Of a DNA stretch of 32,000 bases, positions 5,014-32,000 are shown in pieces. Location of the stretch: assembly GCF_009734345.1 (NCBI RefSeq), contig NZ_CP032551.1, forward strand, positions 30,001 through 62,000. Direction: 5' to 3'. Position 1 is the stretch's first letter. The number at the start of each line of letters is the position of its first letter. Both the position numbers and the translations under genes were made by a program. This DNA comes from Pseudidiomarina andamanensis. Its GTDB lineage: Bacteria; Pseudomonadota; Gammaproteobacteria; Enterobacterales; Alteromonadaceae. The notes under the pieces were generated by a model. The model was not told the DNA's origin. It saw only the letters and a list, made by a program, of their open reading frames with translations, and made no database searches.

Positions 5014-5595
5014 TCAGTCAATTAGGTTTTTTGCATAGATGCCGGTTACGTTGCCACTCTTGAGAAATATACGTAACGGTACCGCGCCGATGTCGCCGAT
5101 GGTGATTAAATAGGTTAACTCGGTGTCGGTTTCGACAGATGGTTGCCCTAGACGTTCTTTCAAACTCTTTGCGGTTGTACACAAGTATAATTGAAAATCG
5201 GAGAGGATATCGCAGTTTGAAATGAACACTCGTTTGACAAAACTACGTTGTTCATCAGTTGTTAATAATTCAATGGTTAAGCCATCATAAAATAACTGAC
5301 TTACTGTCATTTTATGTTCTGGCTGATGGCGGTTTGGTACTTGCTTTTCCGTTCGTTTCAGCGGTTCGCCGAGTACATTAATGATGTCAGCTTCGTTTTG
5401 TCCAAAGGATTTATATAAGCTATTTAATTCGTACGGCTGTGACCCTTCGTCATAGCGATGATGCGGCTGCTGCCAAATGCTGGTATCGGACGCTTGTGGA
5501 AACGTGAGTAGGTGATGATTGGTTGTTTCTGCATGAGAACTCGCGCTGAACAAACAACCTACTAAAAATATGACGTAATATTTTGCCTTCTGCAT
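5014..5595 (-). CDS. Hypothetical secreted protein or lipoprotein
   Basis: 193 aa. N-terminal signal sequence MQKAKYYVIFLVGCLFSASSHA, with a possible LVGC lipobox or cleavage after SHA. I recognise no family. Confidence 0.6.
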   Translation of the reverse strand: MQKAKYYVIFLVGCLFSASSHAETTNHHLLTFPQASDTSIWQQPHHRYDEGSQPYELNSLYKSFGQNEADIINVLGEPLKRTEKQVPNRHQPEHKMTVSQLFYDGLTIELLTTDEQRSFVKRVFISNCDILSDFQLYLCTTAKSLKERLGQPSVETDTELTYLITIGDIGAVPLRIFLKSGNVTGIYAKNLID

Positions 5596-5736: not shown

Positions 5737-5809
5737 CGTTTTTCGTTTTTCGTCCTTCGCTTTTCCGAATAACGAATAACCAATAACGAATAACGAATAA
5801 CGAATAACG
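5737..5809. repeat. Heptamer element in the porin 3' UTR: CGTTTTT CGTTTTT CGTCCTT CGCTTTT C | CGAATAA CGAATAA CCAATAA CGAATAA CGAATAA CGAATAA CG
   Basis: 7-nt phasing read directly. The T-rich arm (5737-5764) abuts the A-rich arm (5766-5809) with no loop. The element lies between the porin stop (5819) and its terminator. Confidence 0.8.
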
Positions 5810-7012: not shown

Positions 7013-7035
7013 TGCTGTGCTCCTGTTTTGTAAGA

Positions 7036-7146
7036 CGTTGTTCGTTATTCGAAACTCGTTATTCGTTATTGGTTATTCGAAGTAAGACAAACACCATAAA
7101 TATTTAACTCGATGCACGAATAACGAATAACGAGTAACGAATAACG
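7036..7146. repeat. Heptamer-armed inverted repeat A: (CGTTATT-type)x6 7036-7079, loop, (CGAATAA-type)x4 7117-7146
   Basis: 30-nt arms 7043-7072 and 7117-7146 are complementary at 27/30 positions. The element starts 23 nt upstream of the porin start codon on the minus strand. Confidence 0.85.
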
Positions 7147-7247
7147 TTAGTGAGTAAGCTTTTAACATGCGGGCGTAATTATCAATCTAGACTATGGTCT
7201 AATGGCTTGATCGCGCGCAATAACTGAAGGTATACGCATCAAAAAAA

Positions 7248-7384
7248 CGTTATTCGATACTCGTTATTCGTTAATCGAAAAAGACGAGAAACCAAAGCTA
7301 GCGCACAAAGAAGTGAGCAAATCGTACTTCAATCTGCCGAGCGAGCTAAACTCACGAATAACCAATAACGAGTAACGAATAACG
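7248..7384. repeat. Heptamer-armed inverted repeat B: left arm 7248-7277, 77-nt loop, right arm 7355-7384
   Basis: Arms are complementary at 27/30 positions. The element ends 25 nt upstream of the acs ATG, just before the AGGAGG RBS. Confidence 0.85.
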
Positions 7385-22338: not shown

Positions 22339-22407
22339 TTGGGTGCGCGTTGTTTGGGTTTTGGTAGATTGGATTAGTTAAACGGAAACCTTTGAGAACT
22401 GCAAGAG

Positions 22408-22508
22408 CGTTATTCGTTGTTCGTTATTCGTTATTCGAAAAAGAAAAGCCAACAACGTTGTTTGTGTTTTGTGTTTACCGATTAACGAATAACGAATAAC
22501 GAATAACG
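22408..22508. repeat. Heptamer-armed inverted repeat C: left arm 22408-22437, 41-nt loop, right arm 22479-22508
   Basis: CGTTATT CGTTGTT CGTTATT CGTTATT CG faces CGATTAA CGAATAA CGAATAA CGAATAA CG, complementary at 28/30. The loop contains the 12-bp palindrome AACAACGTTGTT (22451-22462). Confidence 0.85.
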
Positions 22509-22581
22509 CCTTTGCTCGTTATATGATGTTTTTCGTCGCTAGGGGTTTTAATTTCGGCTCATAATTGCTACAAAAGGCTAT

Positions 22582-27623: not shown

Positions 27624-29336
27624 ATGGATATTCAAACTCTCACGTTTATTATCGTCGGCCTGACGTTCGCTCTCTATATTGCCATTGCAATTTGGTCACG
27701 CGCGGGCTCGACTTCTGACTTCTACGTTGCAAGTGGTGGTGTACACCCAGTCATGAATGGTATGGCAACAGCCGCCGACTGGATGTCTGCCGCATCGTTT
27801 ATTTCAATGGCCGGTATTATCGCTTTCGCAGGTTACGACGGTAGTGTGTACTTAATGGGGTGGACCGGTGGTTACGTCTTGTTGGCTCTATGTTTGGCGC
27901 CATACTTGCGTAAGTTCGGTAAGTTCACCGTGCCTGATTTCATCGGTGATCGTTACTACTCTCAAACCGCACGTACTATCGCAGTTATTTGCGCTATCTT
28001 GATCTCGTTTACTTATATTGCGGGTCAGATGCGTGGTGTGGGCGTGGTATTCTCGCGCTTCTTAGAAGTTGATATCGCAACAGGTGTATTCATCGGTGCG
28101 GTTATCGTGTTCTTCTACACCGTACTAGGCGGTATGAAAGGGATTACCTATACGCAGGTTGCACAGTACTGTGTACTCGCGTTTGCATACATTGTACCTG
28201 CGGTATTTATCTCAATTTATATGACTGGTCACGTACTGCCACAAACCGGCTTTGGTGCAACCATTGCTGAAGGCGTCGCGGGCGAGGGCACCTACTTGCT
28301 CGATCGGCTAGATGGATTGTCCGCTGAACTGGGCTTGGCTGCTTATACCTCCGGTATTAAATCGAAGATTGACGTATTCGCAATTACTTGTGCGTTGATG
28401 GTTGGTACCGCTGGTTTGCCACACGTGATTGTTCGCTTCTTCACCGTACCAAAAGTACGTGACGCGCGTCGTTCAGCTGGTTGGGCGTTGGTATTCATCT
28501 CAGTTGTTTACCTAACTGCGCCATCAATTGCTGGTTTCGCGAAAGTGAACTTGATTAACACAGTGAATGGTCCTGATCTGCAAGGCGTTGAGTATGACGC
28601 GGCACCAGACTGGGTGAAAAACTGGGAAAAAACCGGTTTGATCGCGTGGGAAGACAAGAACGAAGACGGCAAAATGTTCTATTCAGGTGATGCGCGCAAC
28701 GAAATGACCGTTGACCGCGACATCATGGTATTGGCAAACCCAGAGATTGCTAATTTACCAGCTTGGGTCGTGGCATTGGTTGCTGCTGGTGGTGTTGCTG
28801 CGGCACTATCTACCTCGGCAGGCTTACTGTTGGTTATTTCGACATCCATCTCGCATGACTTGTTGAAACGAACCTTAACTCCGAATATTACCGACAAACA
28901 AGAGTTGCTGTGGGCACGTGTTGCCGCTGCAGTGGCGATTGCGCTGTCGACTTGGTTTGGTATTAATCCGCCCGGCTTCGTGGCGCAGGTGGTCGCCTTC
29001 GCGTTCGGCTTAGCCGCAGCGAGCTTCTTCCCTGCCATTATTCTGGGTATCTTCTACAAGAAAATGAACAGCCAAGGCGCTATTGCCGGTATGTTGGTTG
29101 GTATTGTGTTCACCTTGGCGTACATTATTTACTTCAAGTTTGTGAACCCAGCCGCGAACAATGCTGATAACTGGTTGTTCGGTATCTCGCCAGAAGGTAT
29201 TGGTACCATTGGTATGTTGCTGAACTTCATCGTGTCTTATGTGGTACATAAGATCACAGGTGATGCGCCGCAAGATACGCAAGATTTGGTGGAGTCGATT
29301 CGTTACCCGCGCGGTGCGGGTGGTGCGACGCACTAA
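27624..29336 (+). CDS. Sodium:solute symporter (SSS family, VC_2705/ActP-related; probable acetate/monocarboxylate uptake)
   Basis: 570 aa, about 13 TM helices, ActP-like sequence (GGVHPVMNGMATAADWMSAASFISMAG). It follows DUF4212 with an 11-nt gap. The substrate is inferred from context only. Confidence 0.8.
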   Translation: MDIQTLTFIIVGLTFALYIAIAIWSRAGSTSDFYVASGGVHPVMNGMATAADWMSAASFISMAGIIAFAGYDGSVYLMGWTGGYVLLALCLAPYLRKFGKFTVPDFIGDRYYSQTARTIAVICAILISFTYIAGQMRGVGVVFSRFLEVDIATGVFIGAVIVFFYTVLGGMKGITYTQVAQYCVLAFAYIVPAVFISIYMTGHVLPQTGFGATIAEGVAGEGTYLLDRLDGLSAELGLAAYTSGIKSKIDVFAITCALMVGTAGLPHVIVRFFTVPKVRDARRSAGWALVFISVVYLTAPSIAGFAKVNLINTVNGPDLQGVEYDAAPDWVKNWEKTGLIAWEDKNEDGKMFYSGDARNEMTVDRDIMVLANPEIANLPAWVVALVAAGGVAAALSTSAGLLLVISTSISHDLLKRTLTPNITDKQELLWARVAAAVAIALSTWFGINPPGFVAQVVAFAFGLAAASFFPAIILGIFYKKMNSQGAIAGMLVGIVFTLAYIIYFKFVNPAANNADNWLFGISPEGIGTIGMLLNFIVSYVVHKITGDAPQDTQDLVESIRYPRGAGGATH

Positions 29337-29341
29337 TTAGC

Positions 29342-29368
29342 AAAGCCCGGCTTCACGCCGGGCTTTTT
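29342..29368 (+). terminator. Rho-independent terminator after the symporter (AAAGCCCGGC-TTCAC-GCCGGGCTTT, T5)
   Basis: 10-bp stem read directly. The T-run 29364-29368 runs straight into the heptamer array. Confidence 0.8.
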
Positions 29369-29448
29369 CGTTGTTCGTTATTCGTTAGTGGTTATTCGTT
29401 TTGATTTTTTGGCTTTTTCGAGTAACGATTAACGAATAACTAGTAACG
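29369..29448. repeat. Heptamer-armed inverted repeat D: left arm 29369-29398, 20-nt T-rich loop, right arm 29419-29448
   Basis: CGTTGTT CGTTATT CGTTAGT GGTTATT CG faces CGAGTAA CGATTAA CGAATAA CTAGTAA CG, complementary at 24/30. The element ends 15 nt before the ATG of the DUF294 gene. Confidence 0.8.
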
Positions 29449-29463
29449 CTTTTAAGGTGTTCA

Positions 29464-31488
29464 ATGCAGCCGGAATTTACTGAGGTTCAGCGCTTTTTAC
29501 TCGATTGCCCACCGTTTGACGAACTAACCGGTGAACAGCGCCAGTGGGTGGCGCAGAACATTGATGCCGCTTATGTCAATGAGCACAACGTGGATGCACT
29601 GTTTAAGCAACACAGCCCGGCGCTTTATATTGTGCGCTCTGGCGGCTTTGATTTGCTTGCGCCCGATGGGCATTTGATTGAGCGTTTAGAGTCACATGAC
29701 TTATTTGGCTTTCCATCGCTGCTAAGCGGGCGGCCTGTGGTGAATAAGCTCAAGGTGATTGAAGATGGGATTATCTATATTGTCTCGGCGGCGATGTTCG
29801 ATAAATTGCGCCAAAACGTGCGCGCCTTCGAACAATACTTCATTCGCGCCCACGGCCAACGCCTGCTAAGCGAAGTAGCCCGGCGTTCTCCTCGTGAGGT
29901 AGGGCCGGGACGTGGCGAAGCCACGGTTAATGCTGATGCGAGTAATAATCGCGATTTTAATGAAACGGAGAGATTAACCGCTAGCGCGTCCCGGCCTGCA
30001 GTGACAGAAAAGTCGCCGGGCTACGACACCCTCGAGCTTACCATTGCGGAAGTGATTAGCCGCGAGCCGGTGACGGTATCCAGCACAGCCTCTATCCGCG
30101 AGGCCGCCGAGCTGATGCGCGACGAAAAAGTCTCATCGGTGATGGTTACAGGTGCAGTCCAAGGTCTGACCCCCAAGGAGGGGGCAGACCTTGGACTGCA
30201 CCCCACCTCCTCCAAACTCTTCGGCATTCTCACCGACCGCGATTTAAGAAACCGCGTCATCGCTCAAGGCCTAAGCTACGACATTCAAGTGAATGCGGTG
30301 ATGACCCAAGCACCGGCAACGGTCTACGGGCGGCAAACGCTGATGGATGCGCTGACGTTAATGACCCAGCATAATATTCACCATCTGCCTGTGCTAAACG
30401 ATGACGACCAGCCAATCGGCATGATCACCAATACCGATTTGATGCGCCAACAGCGCAGCGAACCGGTGATGTTGATTAGTGCTATCAATAAGGCTGAAAC
30501 ACGCGAGCAACTAGTCGCAGAAGCTCAGCATATTCCGGCTTATATGCAGACGTTTGCGGCGCGCGTTCATGACACCACTATGGTGGGGCGTCTGTTAGCG
30601 TCGTTAACCGATAGTATGACCCGTAAGTTGATTAGCCTCTTTGAACAAGACCATGGCGTTGCGCCAAGTGCGTACTGTTGGATAGCGTTCGGCTCACAAG
30701 GCCGTGAAGACCAAGTGCTCAGCTCGGATCAAGACAATGGATTGTTGCTAGGCAATGGCTTGAACGAGCAACAACGTGAATGGTTTAAGGGGCTTGGCGA
30801 ATATGTCTGCACCGGCTTAAATGAATGCGGTATTCCGCTGTGCCCTGGCGATATCATGGCGTCGAACCCTGATTGCCGACGCACGCTAGACGGCTGGCTT
30901 GACCGCTTCCATACCTGGACCGAGAGCCCAACACCGAAAGCCCTCATGTACTGTCAGATATTCTTCGATTCACGCATGGTGCACGGCAATAAGCGTTTGT
31001 ATCAGCGCTATCGTGACGAAGTTGCCAAACTTGGCAAGAACGAGTTTTTCTTGGGCAATTTGGCACGCTTACAAGTGAGCGTTCAAGTGCCATTGGGATT
31101 ATTCAATCGCTTCCGTGGCACAGAATCTGGGAAAGATAGCGATTTGATTAACATAAAGCGCTACGGCATTGCGCTGATTAATGACATTGTGCGCATCTAT
31201 TCGTTGCAAGCAGGGCTTACGGTACCGCAAACATTAATGCGACTTGAGCAGCTGCGTGGCAGTAATCTATTGAACCGTAAGGATAACCAATCGTTGGGAG
31301 AAGCATGGCAGTTTTTAACCCAACTGCGGCTGCAGCATCAATTAAATATTTGGGGTACCGATAAATCGAAGAACGCTTTAGACCCTGATGAACTCAGTAC
31401 CTTGACCCGCCGACAATTAAAAACTGCATTTCGAATTATTAAAGATTGCCAGCAAGGCGTTGGTTTGAAGTTCGGGCGTATTGGCTAA
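29464..31488 (+). CDS. Cyclic-nucleotide-binding / tandem CBS / DUF294 nucleotidyltransferase protein
   Basis: 674 aa. N-terminal cNMP-binding-like domain; CBS pair (GILTDRDLRNRV, GMITNTDLMRQQ); Pol-beta-type NTase motif AFGSQGREDQVLSSDQDNGLL; C-terminal DUF294_C-like helical domain. It carries two apparent extra segments (see findings). Confidence 0.85.
   Translation: MQPEFTEVQRFLLDCPPFDELTGEQRQWVAQNIDAAYVNEHNVDALFKQHSPALYIVRSGGFDLLAPDGHLIERLESHDLFGFPSLLSGRPVVNKLKVIEDGIIYIVSAAMFDKLRQNVRAFEQYFIRAHGQRLLSEVARRSPREVGPGRGEATVNADASNNRDFNETERLTASASRPAVTEKSPGYDTLELTIAEVISREPVTVSSTASIREAAELMRDEKVSSVMVTGAVQGLTPKEGADLGLHPTSSKLFGILTDRDLRNRVIAQGLSYDIQVNAVMTQAPATVYGRQTLMDALTLMTQHNIHHLPVLNDDDQPIGMITNTDLMRQQRSEPVMLISAINKAETREQLVAEAQHIPAYMQTFAARVHDTTMVGRLLASLTDSMTRKLISLFEQDHGVAPSAYCWIAFGSQGREDQVLSSDQDNGLLLGNGLNEQQREWFKGLGEYVCTGLNECGIPLCPGDIMASNPDCRRTLDGWLDRFHTWTESPTPKALMYCQIFFDSRMVHGNKRLYQRYRDEVAKLGKNEFFLGNLARLQVSVQVPLGLFNRFRGTESGKDSDLINIKRYGIALINDIVRIYSLQAGLTVPQTLMRLEQLRGSNLLNRKDNQSLGEAWQFLTQLRLQHQLNIWGTDKSKNALDPDELSTLTRRQLKTAFRIIKDCQQGVGLKFGRIG
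30151..30202. repeat. 52-nt near-perfect palindrome inside the CDS (18-bp plus 5-bp stem, 1-nt bulge, 5-nt loop)
   Basis: GGTGCAGTCCAAGGTCTG-A-CCCCC-AAGGA-GGGGG-CAGACCTTGGACTGCACC read directly. It is translated in frame as GAVQGLTPKEGADLGLH. Confidence 0.9.
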
Positions 31489-32000
31489 TGTGGGATTTAG
31501 TCAAACGCTGGTGGCGGACGCATCAAGCTCGAAAAAAGGCGTGGACGGAACATCGCTATATTGCACTTGATATTGAAACCAGCGGGTTAGATCCTGCAAC
31601 CGATCAGATATTGGCGATTGCGTGGGTTGAGGTAGCACCGCCAGTGATTCATTATACAACCGGGCGCTACTATCTTATTGACCACGATGAGACTGATTTG
31701 AAGCAGTCTCCGGTTATTCACGGACTCGTCAAGAAGGACTTCATTGAGACCTCACAACTGTGTGATGTGATGGCACAACTTTCTGAACAGTTGAATAACA
31801 AAATATTAATTTGTCATCATATACAACTTGATTGGCGGTTTCTTAAACAGGCAGCCAAGCGGTGTGATATTGAACTTTCTCCTCTCGCGTTATTTGATAC
31901 GTTGGCATTTGAGGCTAGCCGATTAAAGCGTCAACAACATCATATTCAACGTGGCTCTTTAACCCTCACAGCCTGCCGCTCAAGGTATGGTCTCCCCGAA
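31488..32000 (+). CDS. DnaQ-like 3'-5' exonuclease (DEDD family; DNA polymerase III epsilon-like), 3' end outside the window
   Basis: It is absent from the ORF track because no stop falls within the window. The ATG overlaps the upstream stop (TAATG at 31486-31490), and the frame is open to nt 32000. ExoI motif IALDIETSGLDP; ExoII-like segment ICHHIQLDWRFL. Confidence 0.8.
   Translation, partial: MWDLVKRWWRTHQARKKAWTEHRYIALDIETSGLDPATDQILAIAWVEVAPPVIHYTTGRYYLIDHDETDLKQSPVIHGLVKKDFIETSQLCDVMAQLSEQLNNKILICHHIQLDWRFLKQAAKRCDIELSPLALFDTLAFEASRLKRQQHHIQRGSLTLTACRSRYGLPE

Follow-up and report, generated by a model that had tools for sequence, protein, structure and literature searches.

How did a near-perfect palindrome of 52 nt come to be translated in frame inside a conserved protein, and what has kept its two arms complementary? 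The question is raised by a locus of Pseudidiomarina andamanensis (contig NZ_CP032551.1, positions 30,001 to 62,000), a stretch of 32,000 nt which is called the window below and whose first letter is position 1. The palindrome lies in the first CBS domain (CBS1) of a gene encoding a DUF294 nucleotidyltransferase protein (Table 1), and the first-pass annotation, made from the sequence by a model, had compared it to the Rickettsia palindromic elements (RPEs), which are mobile. We find that the stem has been maintained beyond neutral expectation among related species. The palindrome is probably a single-copy inverted duplication that was made in situ, has been kept complementary by template-switch homogenisation and is tolerated in a disordered loop of the protein.

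Reversed and complemented, GGTGCAGTCCAAGGTCTG (30151-30168) gives exactly CAGACCTTGGACTGCACC (30185-30202), and an inner CCCCC/GGGGG lengthens the stem to 23 bp, leaving A30169 as a single bulged base and AAGGA as the loop. These features had been described before and were re-derived here from the sequence and from the fold. Relative to the perfect allele of one orthologous locus (L011), A30169 represents a C to A change that replaces Pro by Thr. Folded as RNA the palindrome reaches a dG of -52.0 kcal/mol (z = -7.8, with none of 200 shuffled sequences folding as well) and as DNA -30.2 kcal/mol (z = -7.5). When 70-nt segments were slid along the whole 32 kb this was the strongest fold, with -52 against -34.2 for the runner-up, a mean of -15.8 and a standard deviation of 4.8. 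Taken alone, the right arm also reads as a small quasi-palindrome (GCAGACCTTGGACTGC), as was seen in the fold of the Pseudidiomarina marina locus (L001). The reading frame is also as had been claimed, the palindrome being read through as ...VSSVMVT-GAVQGLTPKEGADLGLHPTSS-KLFGILTDRDLR... and covering residues G230 to P247.

Library preparation can yield palindromes, and an assembly or sequencing artefact such as a fold-back chimera was considered together with chance similarity. However, the same or related palindromes are found in independent NCBI isolate genomes, metagenome-assembled genomes (MAGs) and JGI, ENA and Logan assemblies, where identical or covarying arms occupy the same codon positions, and the frame remains open through the palindrome. 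As to chance, the arm pattern at up to three mismatches has no other match in the 32-kb window and is expected there 0.02 times from shuffles. Both explanations were rejected, and we give them practically no credence.

Table 1. Position of the palindrome and its host gene in the window, and type A alleles of the palindrome in the window and at orthologous loci
Feature	Position	Strand	Description	Folding energy
Host gene	29464..31488	+	674-aa protein with cyclic nucleotide monophosphate (cNMP)-binding domain, CBS pair, DUF294 nucleotidyltransferase and DUF294_C (open reading frame, Pfam)	
Loop expansion	30148..30213	+	lineage-specific, in the CBS1 beta2-beta3 turn (T229-S250), holds the palindrome (alignment, AlphaFold2 model, neighbour-joining tree)	
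Palindrome left arm	30151..30173	+	encodes GAVQGLTP; presumed 'slave' copy	
Hairpin loop AAGGA	30175..30179	+	in the register without bulge, loop CAAGGA, 30174-30179	
Palindrome right arm	30180..30202	+	encodes GADLGLH and the first base of P	
Type A allele, window			one bulged A	-52 kcal/mol
Type A alleles, L010 and L035			extra 9-nt duplication	-62 and -63.5 kcal/mol
Type A allele, L011			perfect 24-bp stem	-62.5 kcal/mol, z -8.7
Type A allele, L034 (P. tainanensis)			perfect 24-bp stem	-59 kcal/mol, z -8.6
Type A allele, L004			imperfect by 1 position	-50.9 kcal/mol
Type A allele, L003			imperfect by 2 positions	-54.5 kcal/mol
Type A allele, L064			P. gelatinasegens-like	-56.3 kcal/mol
Type A allele, L002 (P. 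gelatinasegens)			left arm directly duplicated, 39 nt	-64.7 kcal/mol

The host protein carries the Pfam domains PF00027, PF00571 (twice), PF03445 and PF10335. Its orthologues, 98-40% identical, are found in Pseudidiomarina, Idiomarina, Aliidiomarina and Pseudoalteromonas, the nearest (95-98% identity) being those of P. marina and of metagenomic Pseudidiomarina. In an alignment of 33 sequences, the CBS1 turn is a tight one of 3-4 residues (VVDD-GxLVGILTDRD; DDG/DEG) in Idiomarina, Aliidiomarina, Pseudoalteromonas, Natronospira and most of the Pseudidiomarina orthologues; inserts of variable length and sequence stand at exactly this turn in one Pseudidiomarina subclade. The expansion is monophyletic in a neighbour-joining tree based on 594 gap-free columns. 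The earlier supposition of a lineage-specific insert in CBS1 is in this way borne out by the alignment, while its length had been put at 17-18 residues, matching the palindrome, and is in fact about 20-21 residues relative to the tight-hairpin orthologues (T229-S250), slightly more than the palindrome itself. A position in a surface loop, which had been put forward for testing by a structural model, also agrees with the AlphaFold2 model (mean predicted local distance difference test score, pLDDT, of 80.5), in which residues 233-248, between strands 225-230 and 251-257, have a pLDDT below 50 and the insert is predicted to form a disordered, solvent-exposed excursion between beta2 and beta3. The expansion is made of two parts that differ in age, an older, protein-constrained right arm and the left arm.

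DNA of the orthologues was obtained for 11 loci by exact-protein look-up, and more loci came from genome and metagenome scans. Besides the type A alleles of Table 1, a palindrome is present at the same codons in the sister clade (L005, L006), where it has another centre, with AGAGAGGGGTGCAGACCCTGGTCC and GGACCAGGGTCTGCACCCCTCTCT on its two sides, and a folding energy of -53.8 (z = -9.2). In L005 the arms are perfect over 24 nt, are centred on CCGG and reach the flanking codons (GAGAG/CTCTC). When these L005-type arms were compared with the left and right arms of the window, all four alignments scored equally, since the arms are themselves quasi-palindromic. In the neighbour-joining tree, palindromes of type A and those of type B form sister groups. 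One clade further out (L007-L009, L066), the inserts are long, contain 15-nt tandem repeats and show no significant structure (z of +0.6 and -0.9). These repeats (ACTGCGGTAAACGAG-like, encoding TAVNE or TAVND) form an unrelated longer insert in the same CBS1 loop, at 3688-3831 of L008 and 1591-1734 of L066, which makes the site a general hotspot for in-frame repeat expansion and not for palindromes alone.

In P. marina (L001) the right arm stands alone as GGGGGCAGACCTTGGACTGCACC (GADLGLHP), without left arm and loop, and no structure remains (z = -0.85). The right-arm-only alleles of this species are nested beside a palindrome-bearing allele in the neighbour-joining tree, and L001 is 98.7% identical to L010 over 1200 nt, which together indicate that the left arm was lost secondarily and recently, in a deletion of 39 nt relative to L010 and 30 nt relative to the window. 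Gains are seen as well. The whole left arm and loop, 39 nt (GAVPVPNPEEGAS), are directly duplicated beside the palindrome in L002 (3640-3730), and a 9-nt unit (GGTGCCGCG/GGTGCAGCG, 'GAA') is duplicated in L010 (2964-2975) and on the minus strand of L035 (about 5360-5375). Such duplications would fit hairpin-associated slippage.

The gene shows about 80% DNA identity, and 50% at third codon positions, when the lineage of the window and L011 is compared with that of P. tainanensis. The arms of L011 and L034 are nevertheless identical at 44 of 48 positions and at 14 of 16 third positions, and their perfect stems differ at two pairs which have been changed on both sides (U-A to G-C and C-G to A-U). 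A simulation in which the gene's own divergence per codon position was applied to a 24-bp stem gave 4.3 broken pairs per lineage and a probability of 0.005 that no pair is broken. In an alignment of eight alleles (A2), standard pairs fill 94.8% of the cells, compared with 30-49% for slid registers, and four pairs show double changes (10 cells). The covariation of 0.170, against 0.061 +/- 0.018 for shuffles (0 of 500 as high), is to be read as indicative and not as a formal probability, the eight sequences being related. At one pair (20/39) all of three Watson-Crick types, U-A, G-C and C-G, are found. The stem is thus maintained beyond neutral expectation, with compensatory change. It is also older than the split of lineages whose synonymous sites are saturated, so that the insertion is not the 'recent' one that had been supposed.

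The consequences of this pairing for the protein are unequal. Column i pairs with column 59-i, which sets third codon positions of one arm against second positions of the other, and synonymous variation in the right arm is consequently mirrored as replacements in the left. Where the right arm has Ala as GCA, GCC or GCG, the left arm has Leu (CTG), Arg (CGG) or Pro (CCG), the pair of GCG with CCG being that of P. gelatinasegens; where it has Gly as GGG or GGT, the left arm has Pro (CCC), His (CAC) or Asn (AAC). The change of GGG GCA to GGT GCC, for example, leaves the residues G A as they were, and its mirror image, CTG CCC to CGG CAC, turns L P into R H. Across the alleles the right-arm peptide GA(D/E/G)LGLHP is conserved and the left-arm peptide is not (GAVQGLTP, GAVQGLPP, GAVQGRHP, GAVPVPNP). 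Judging from these alleles, the pairing overrides the protein sequence of the left arm.

The explanation that we favour runs as follows. In the ancestor of one Pseudidiomarina subclade, the beta2-beta3 turn of CBS1 would have been lengthened by a short segment, about GADLGLHPTSS. This segment, by then already quasi-palindromic, would next have been copied in inverted orientation beside itself, adding some 30 nt (10 codons) in frame and giving a stem of about 24 bp. The likeliest route is a switch of template during replication, the nascent strand copying either itself or the strand opposite before it returns to its first template, and the quasi-palindrome GCAGACCTTGGACTGC of the right arm is a plausible seed for it. 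Concerted evolution of the arms may have followed, with changes in either arm carried over to the other by 'quasi-palindrome correction' through template switching, so that the stem would remain perfect or nearly so while its sequence drifts. Synonymous drift in the constrained right arm would in this manner dictate amino-acid replacements in the unconstrained left arm. The same hairpin-prone DNA could yield the in-frame deletion of P. marina, the arm duplications of P. gelatinasegens, L010 and L035, and the re-centred palindromes of L005 and L006. The protein would tolerate such changes because the loop is predicted to be disordered and lies away from the conserved G-h-h-T-x-x-D ligand motif, and we infer that the changes are neutral at the protein level.

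The arrangement itself agrees with such an origin. The reverse-complement repeat adjoins its source, and the source stands alone in P. marina, there by secondary loss; the state before the duplication was presumably similar. Moreover, the boundaries and centre of the palindrome are specific to each clade, a pattern which a single pre-formed element would hardly produce, and repeated local template switching readily would. That template switching has been both the origin and the means of maintenance we infer from this pattern.

Several points weigh against this explanation. Its mechanism is derived from a pattern of alleles, and the published rates of quasi-palindrome correction come from reporters in E. 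coli, an organism other than Pseudidiomarina. Diverged copies may exist elsewhere in the genome, as the genome scan described below needed an exact 18-mer. Above all, homogenisation alone is not obviously enough for the palindrome to have survived in nearly all lineages of an old clade; its persistence is puzzling because in-frame deletion is possible, as in P. marina, and synonymous sites are saturated. Such persistence might be explained by selection acting on the hairpin.

Under that alternative the palindrome would be a cis-acting hairpin lodged in a dispensable protein loop, its pairing kept by compensatory substitutions and its peptide a by-product, and it could still have originated in situ. 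In the mRNA it could cause ribosome pausing at the CBS1/CBS2 boundary, serve in processing by RNase III or another enzyme, or form a barrier to 3'->5' decay; in DNA it could act as a cruciform. Much of what was described above is what one would expect of a selected stem: it is kept far beyond neutral, two lineages being perfect at a probability of 0.005 each, one pair covaries through three Watson-Crick types, the amino acids of the left arm are overridden by the pairing, and hairpins of similar strength (-51 to -65 kcal/mol) stand at the same site in four clades with differing sequence and centre. Some imperfect alleles have G-U pairs on the sense strand, and the hairpin has persisted for long although deletion is possible. 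Nevertheless P. marina lacks the stem while gene and operon are otherwise intact, and no stem is present in the sister clade L007-L009 or in more distant orthologues. There is no T-run, hence no intrinsic terminator, and no Rfam family scores above noise. Moreover, strictly Watson-Crick perfect stems and mismatches that are not wobble pairs (A.G, G.G) fit copying at the DNA level at least equally well. On balance we consider a selected hairpin unlikely, though by no means negligible. Equally doubtful is the notion of a selected element that 'parasitises' the dispensable loop, its pairing dictating half of the loop's residues, with a role in processing, stability or translational pausing of the transcript of the DUF294 and exonuclease genes.

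More specific regulatory roles were examined and set aside. As an intrinsic terminator the stem would need a U-run and is followed by CCACCTCCTCCAAAC, which has none; the terminator scan did not call it, and did call a terminator-like site at 29342-29366, after the upstream gene. A permissive Rfam 15 scan of 29300-31600 returned generic matches resembling miRNA precursors, at 20-32 bits where the gathering thresholds are 70-99. An operator or other protein-binding site was rejected by reasoning, since the arms covary rather than keep a sequence and most orthologues have no such stem.

We turn to the possibility raised by the first-pass annotation, namely that the palindrome belongs to a mobile family. 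RPEs are about 150 bp long, fall into ten families, are scattered through a genome by the dozen, with 44 copies in R. conorii, and place a conserved peptide in unrelated genes (PMC10969869). Copies of the present palindrome were sought with the exact 18-mer arm GGTGCAGTCCAAGGTCKG in one genome per GTDB species (596 Gb), a set that leaves the window's own genome outside and a scan from which old diverged copies may escape. It returned 51 stretches, of which 49 are single matches in unrelated phyla, taken to be chance ones, the estimated chance expectation being about 35. Two genomes alone have both arms, P. tainanensis PIN1 and the MAG Idiomarina sp. 34-48-12; each has them at one locus, which is this very gene. 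With four arm variants and up to six mismatches in 23-24 nt, a Hamming scan of 135 kb of Pseudidiomarina DNA matched the orthologous site only, and blastn of the 85-nt region gave no significant match in plasmid and phage collections. The 30-aa segment was also searched exhaustively with HMMER against 1.84 billion representatives, one per 50% cluster, which limits the power of the search; the single match was P0121, by a chance motif. This metagenomic protein of 1593 aa has at least nine near-identical repeats of about 85 residues with 'ATTATDGADLGCNPTVTPPTF', and its TDGADLGCNPT motif is a chance one, unrelated to the palindrome. The flanks, GGTTACA on the left and CCACCTCC on the right, share no direct repeat that could be a target-site duplication, and the whole element is one stem-loop, without terminal inverted repeats set off from an internal region.

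The idea of an RPE-like mobile element is not supported by these results: the arm occupies a single locus in both carrier genomes and is found nowhere else in the 135 kb, the plasmids or the phages, and a count of copies in the genome and its relatives, as had been advised, leaves the repeat unique within the scans run, the outcome that the first-pass annotation had named as refuting a recent insertion of a palindromic element. What could still be proposed is that a mobile palindromic element, similar to an RPE, to a miniature inverted-repeat transposable element (MITE) or to a repetitive extragenic palindrome (REP), inserted once in frame at the base of the clade and left this relic, its family having since become extinct or diverged. 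Its form does recall the RPEs, being palindromic, read in frame and placed in a conserved protein's surface loop (PMC10969869); another dispersed palindromic family, the intergenic CGTTATTCG arrays, is present in the genome and implies repeat-spreading activity in the lineage; and such a relic would offer a source for the original loop expansion. However, no further copies were found in the carrier genomes (exact arm), the 135 kb (six mismatches or fewer), the plasmids or the phages, the peptide is absent from unrelated proteins as far as the limited power of the HMMER search allows, and at 52 nt the palindrome is far below the length of the RPEs. Neither a target-site duplication nor distinct terminal repeats mark its flanks, its centre and limits vary by clade, and its right arm occurs alone in P. 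marina. In addition a dead element would decay, yet perfect stems persist. We judge such a relic improbable and retain the local inverted duplication as the preferred explanation.

Some other repeats were noted in the window and at the orthologous loci. Intergenic clusters of the 7-nt periodic repeat CGTTATT (as CGTTATTCGTTATTCG) form inverted arrays and imperfect palindromes of 30-56 nt. In the window they lie at 5766-5801, 7027-7377, 22401-22515 and 29369-29448, the last just upstream of the DUF294 gene; elsewhere they were seen in L002 (about 2969), L004 (about 252), L005 (603-731), L006 (586-723 and 2975), L010 (2185-2199) and L034 (2168). These arrays stand between divergent or consecutive genes, and the motif is also intergenic in other Pseudidiomarina species. 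To judge by their distribution, they appear to be a REP-like family spread throughout the genus, and their sequence is not related to that of the palindrome in the DUF294 gene.

Between the cNMP-binding domain and CBS1 of the host protein lies a linker (29878-30024, residues 139-187) that is hypervariable in length and sequence even among orthologues that are more than 90% identical, with a REVGP indel and, in protein P0007, ATVNADATVNGNAAVN repeats as examples, and it is also disordered in the AlphaFold2 model. It contains nested short inverted repeats, GGCCGGGACG/CGTCCCGGCC, CGGTTAAT/ATTAACCG and CGTGGC-GAA-GCCACG. A larger palindromic structure joining 29903-29912 and 29987-29996 with CGGTTAAT/ATTAACCG was considered and rejected, its fold being marginal (z = -2.2, with 6 of 200 shuffles as good).

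Gene order around the host gene is kept across Pseudidiomarina (27624-32000 of the window, and L001-L011): a DUF4212 gene, an SSF-family symporter, the cNMP-CBS-DUF294 gene, an RNase_T/DnaQ-like 3'-5' exonuclease and a TonB-dependent receptor, the exonuclease gene adjoining the DUF294 gene a few bases from its stop codon. The site at 29342-29366 mentioned above is a terminator-like hairpin whose tail is rich in T (AAAGCCCGGCTTCACGCCGGGCTTT TTCGTTGTTC), and it starts 6 nt past the stop codon of the symporter gene. Its position hints at a transcript of the DUF294 gene separate from that of the DUF4212-SSF pair.

In our reading the feature is a long, translated, single-copy palindrome that acts as a self-homogenising quasi-palindrome over species-level time, and does not constitute a new class of system. 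The case serves to separate two look-alikes, a mobile palindrome inserted in frame, as in selfish DNA of the RPE type, and a palindrome made locally that homogenises itself. If template switching is indeed responsible, this would be an unusually clean natural example from bacteria of a mutational mechanism that builds a long perfect intragenic hairpin and keeps it perfect over species-level divergence, producing covariation and clustered replacements without selection. Caution would then be needed where RNA structure is deduced from covariation or positive selection is claimed from dN/dS, the ratio of nonsynonymous to synonymous rates. If instead the hairpin is selected, it would be a bacterial cis-element of a coding region with clear covariation and a natural knockout in P. 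marina. In addition, the close relatives provide a natural allelic series (perfect, imperfect, duplicated, re-centred and deleted) which can be used for the study of palindrome dynamics or of hairpin function.

Among known systems, REPs with their bacterial interspersed mosaic elements (BIMEs), and MITEs, share with the palindrome a GC-rich hairpin of a few tens of nt, and the genomes also carry dispersed intergenic CGTTATTCG arrays, a family to which the palindrome is unrelated in sequence. REPs and MITEs, however, occur in many copies and nearly always outside genes, and the terminal inverted repeats and target-site duplications that characterise MITEs are lacking in the palindrome; from the repeats associated with REPs and their RAYT transposases it likewise differs in being intragenic and single-copy. 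Structured cis-regulatory RNA elements occur inside coding regions, and a conserved covarying stem that overrides part of the amino-acid sequence would be common to them and to this locus. Here, in contrast, the stem lacks an Rfam match, a T-run and a slippery site; P. marina can do without it, and most orthologues have none. With the RPEs the palindrome shares its being read in frame inside a conserved protein, in a surface loop compatible with the fold; it differs in its 52 nt, its single copy, a peptide found in no other protein family and the presence of one arm alone in a close relative.

The closest likeness is to the quasi-palindrome or template-switch mutations of the Ripley model. Template switching turns quasi-palindromes perfect in E. 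coli, as was established with thyA and lacZ quasi-palindrome reporters (PMC7202029), and it can make perfect stems in one event, with multi-base compensatory changes (PMC8794818). In coding genes of yeast it homogenises the arms of inverted repeats and leaves clustered nonsynonymous changes, up to five adjacent replacements (PMC8604942). The known coding cases concern short inverted repeats and mostly single events, whereas the translated stem described here has 24 bp and -52 to -65 kcal/mol, and persists and covaries across species with saturated synonymous sites, its mechanism being deduced from that pattern. What they have in common with this locus is the reverse-complement copy beside its source, arms that become or stay complementary, 'compensatory' changes of several bases at once, and clustered nonsynonymous changes without an adaptive cause.

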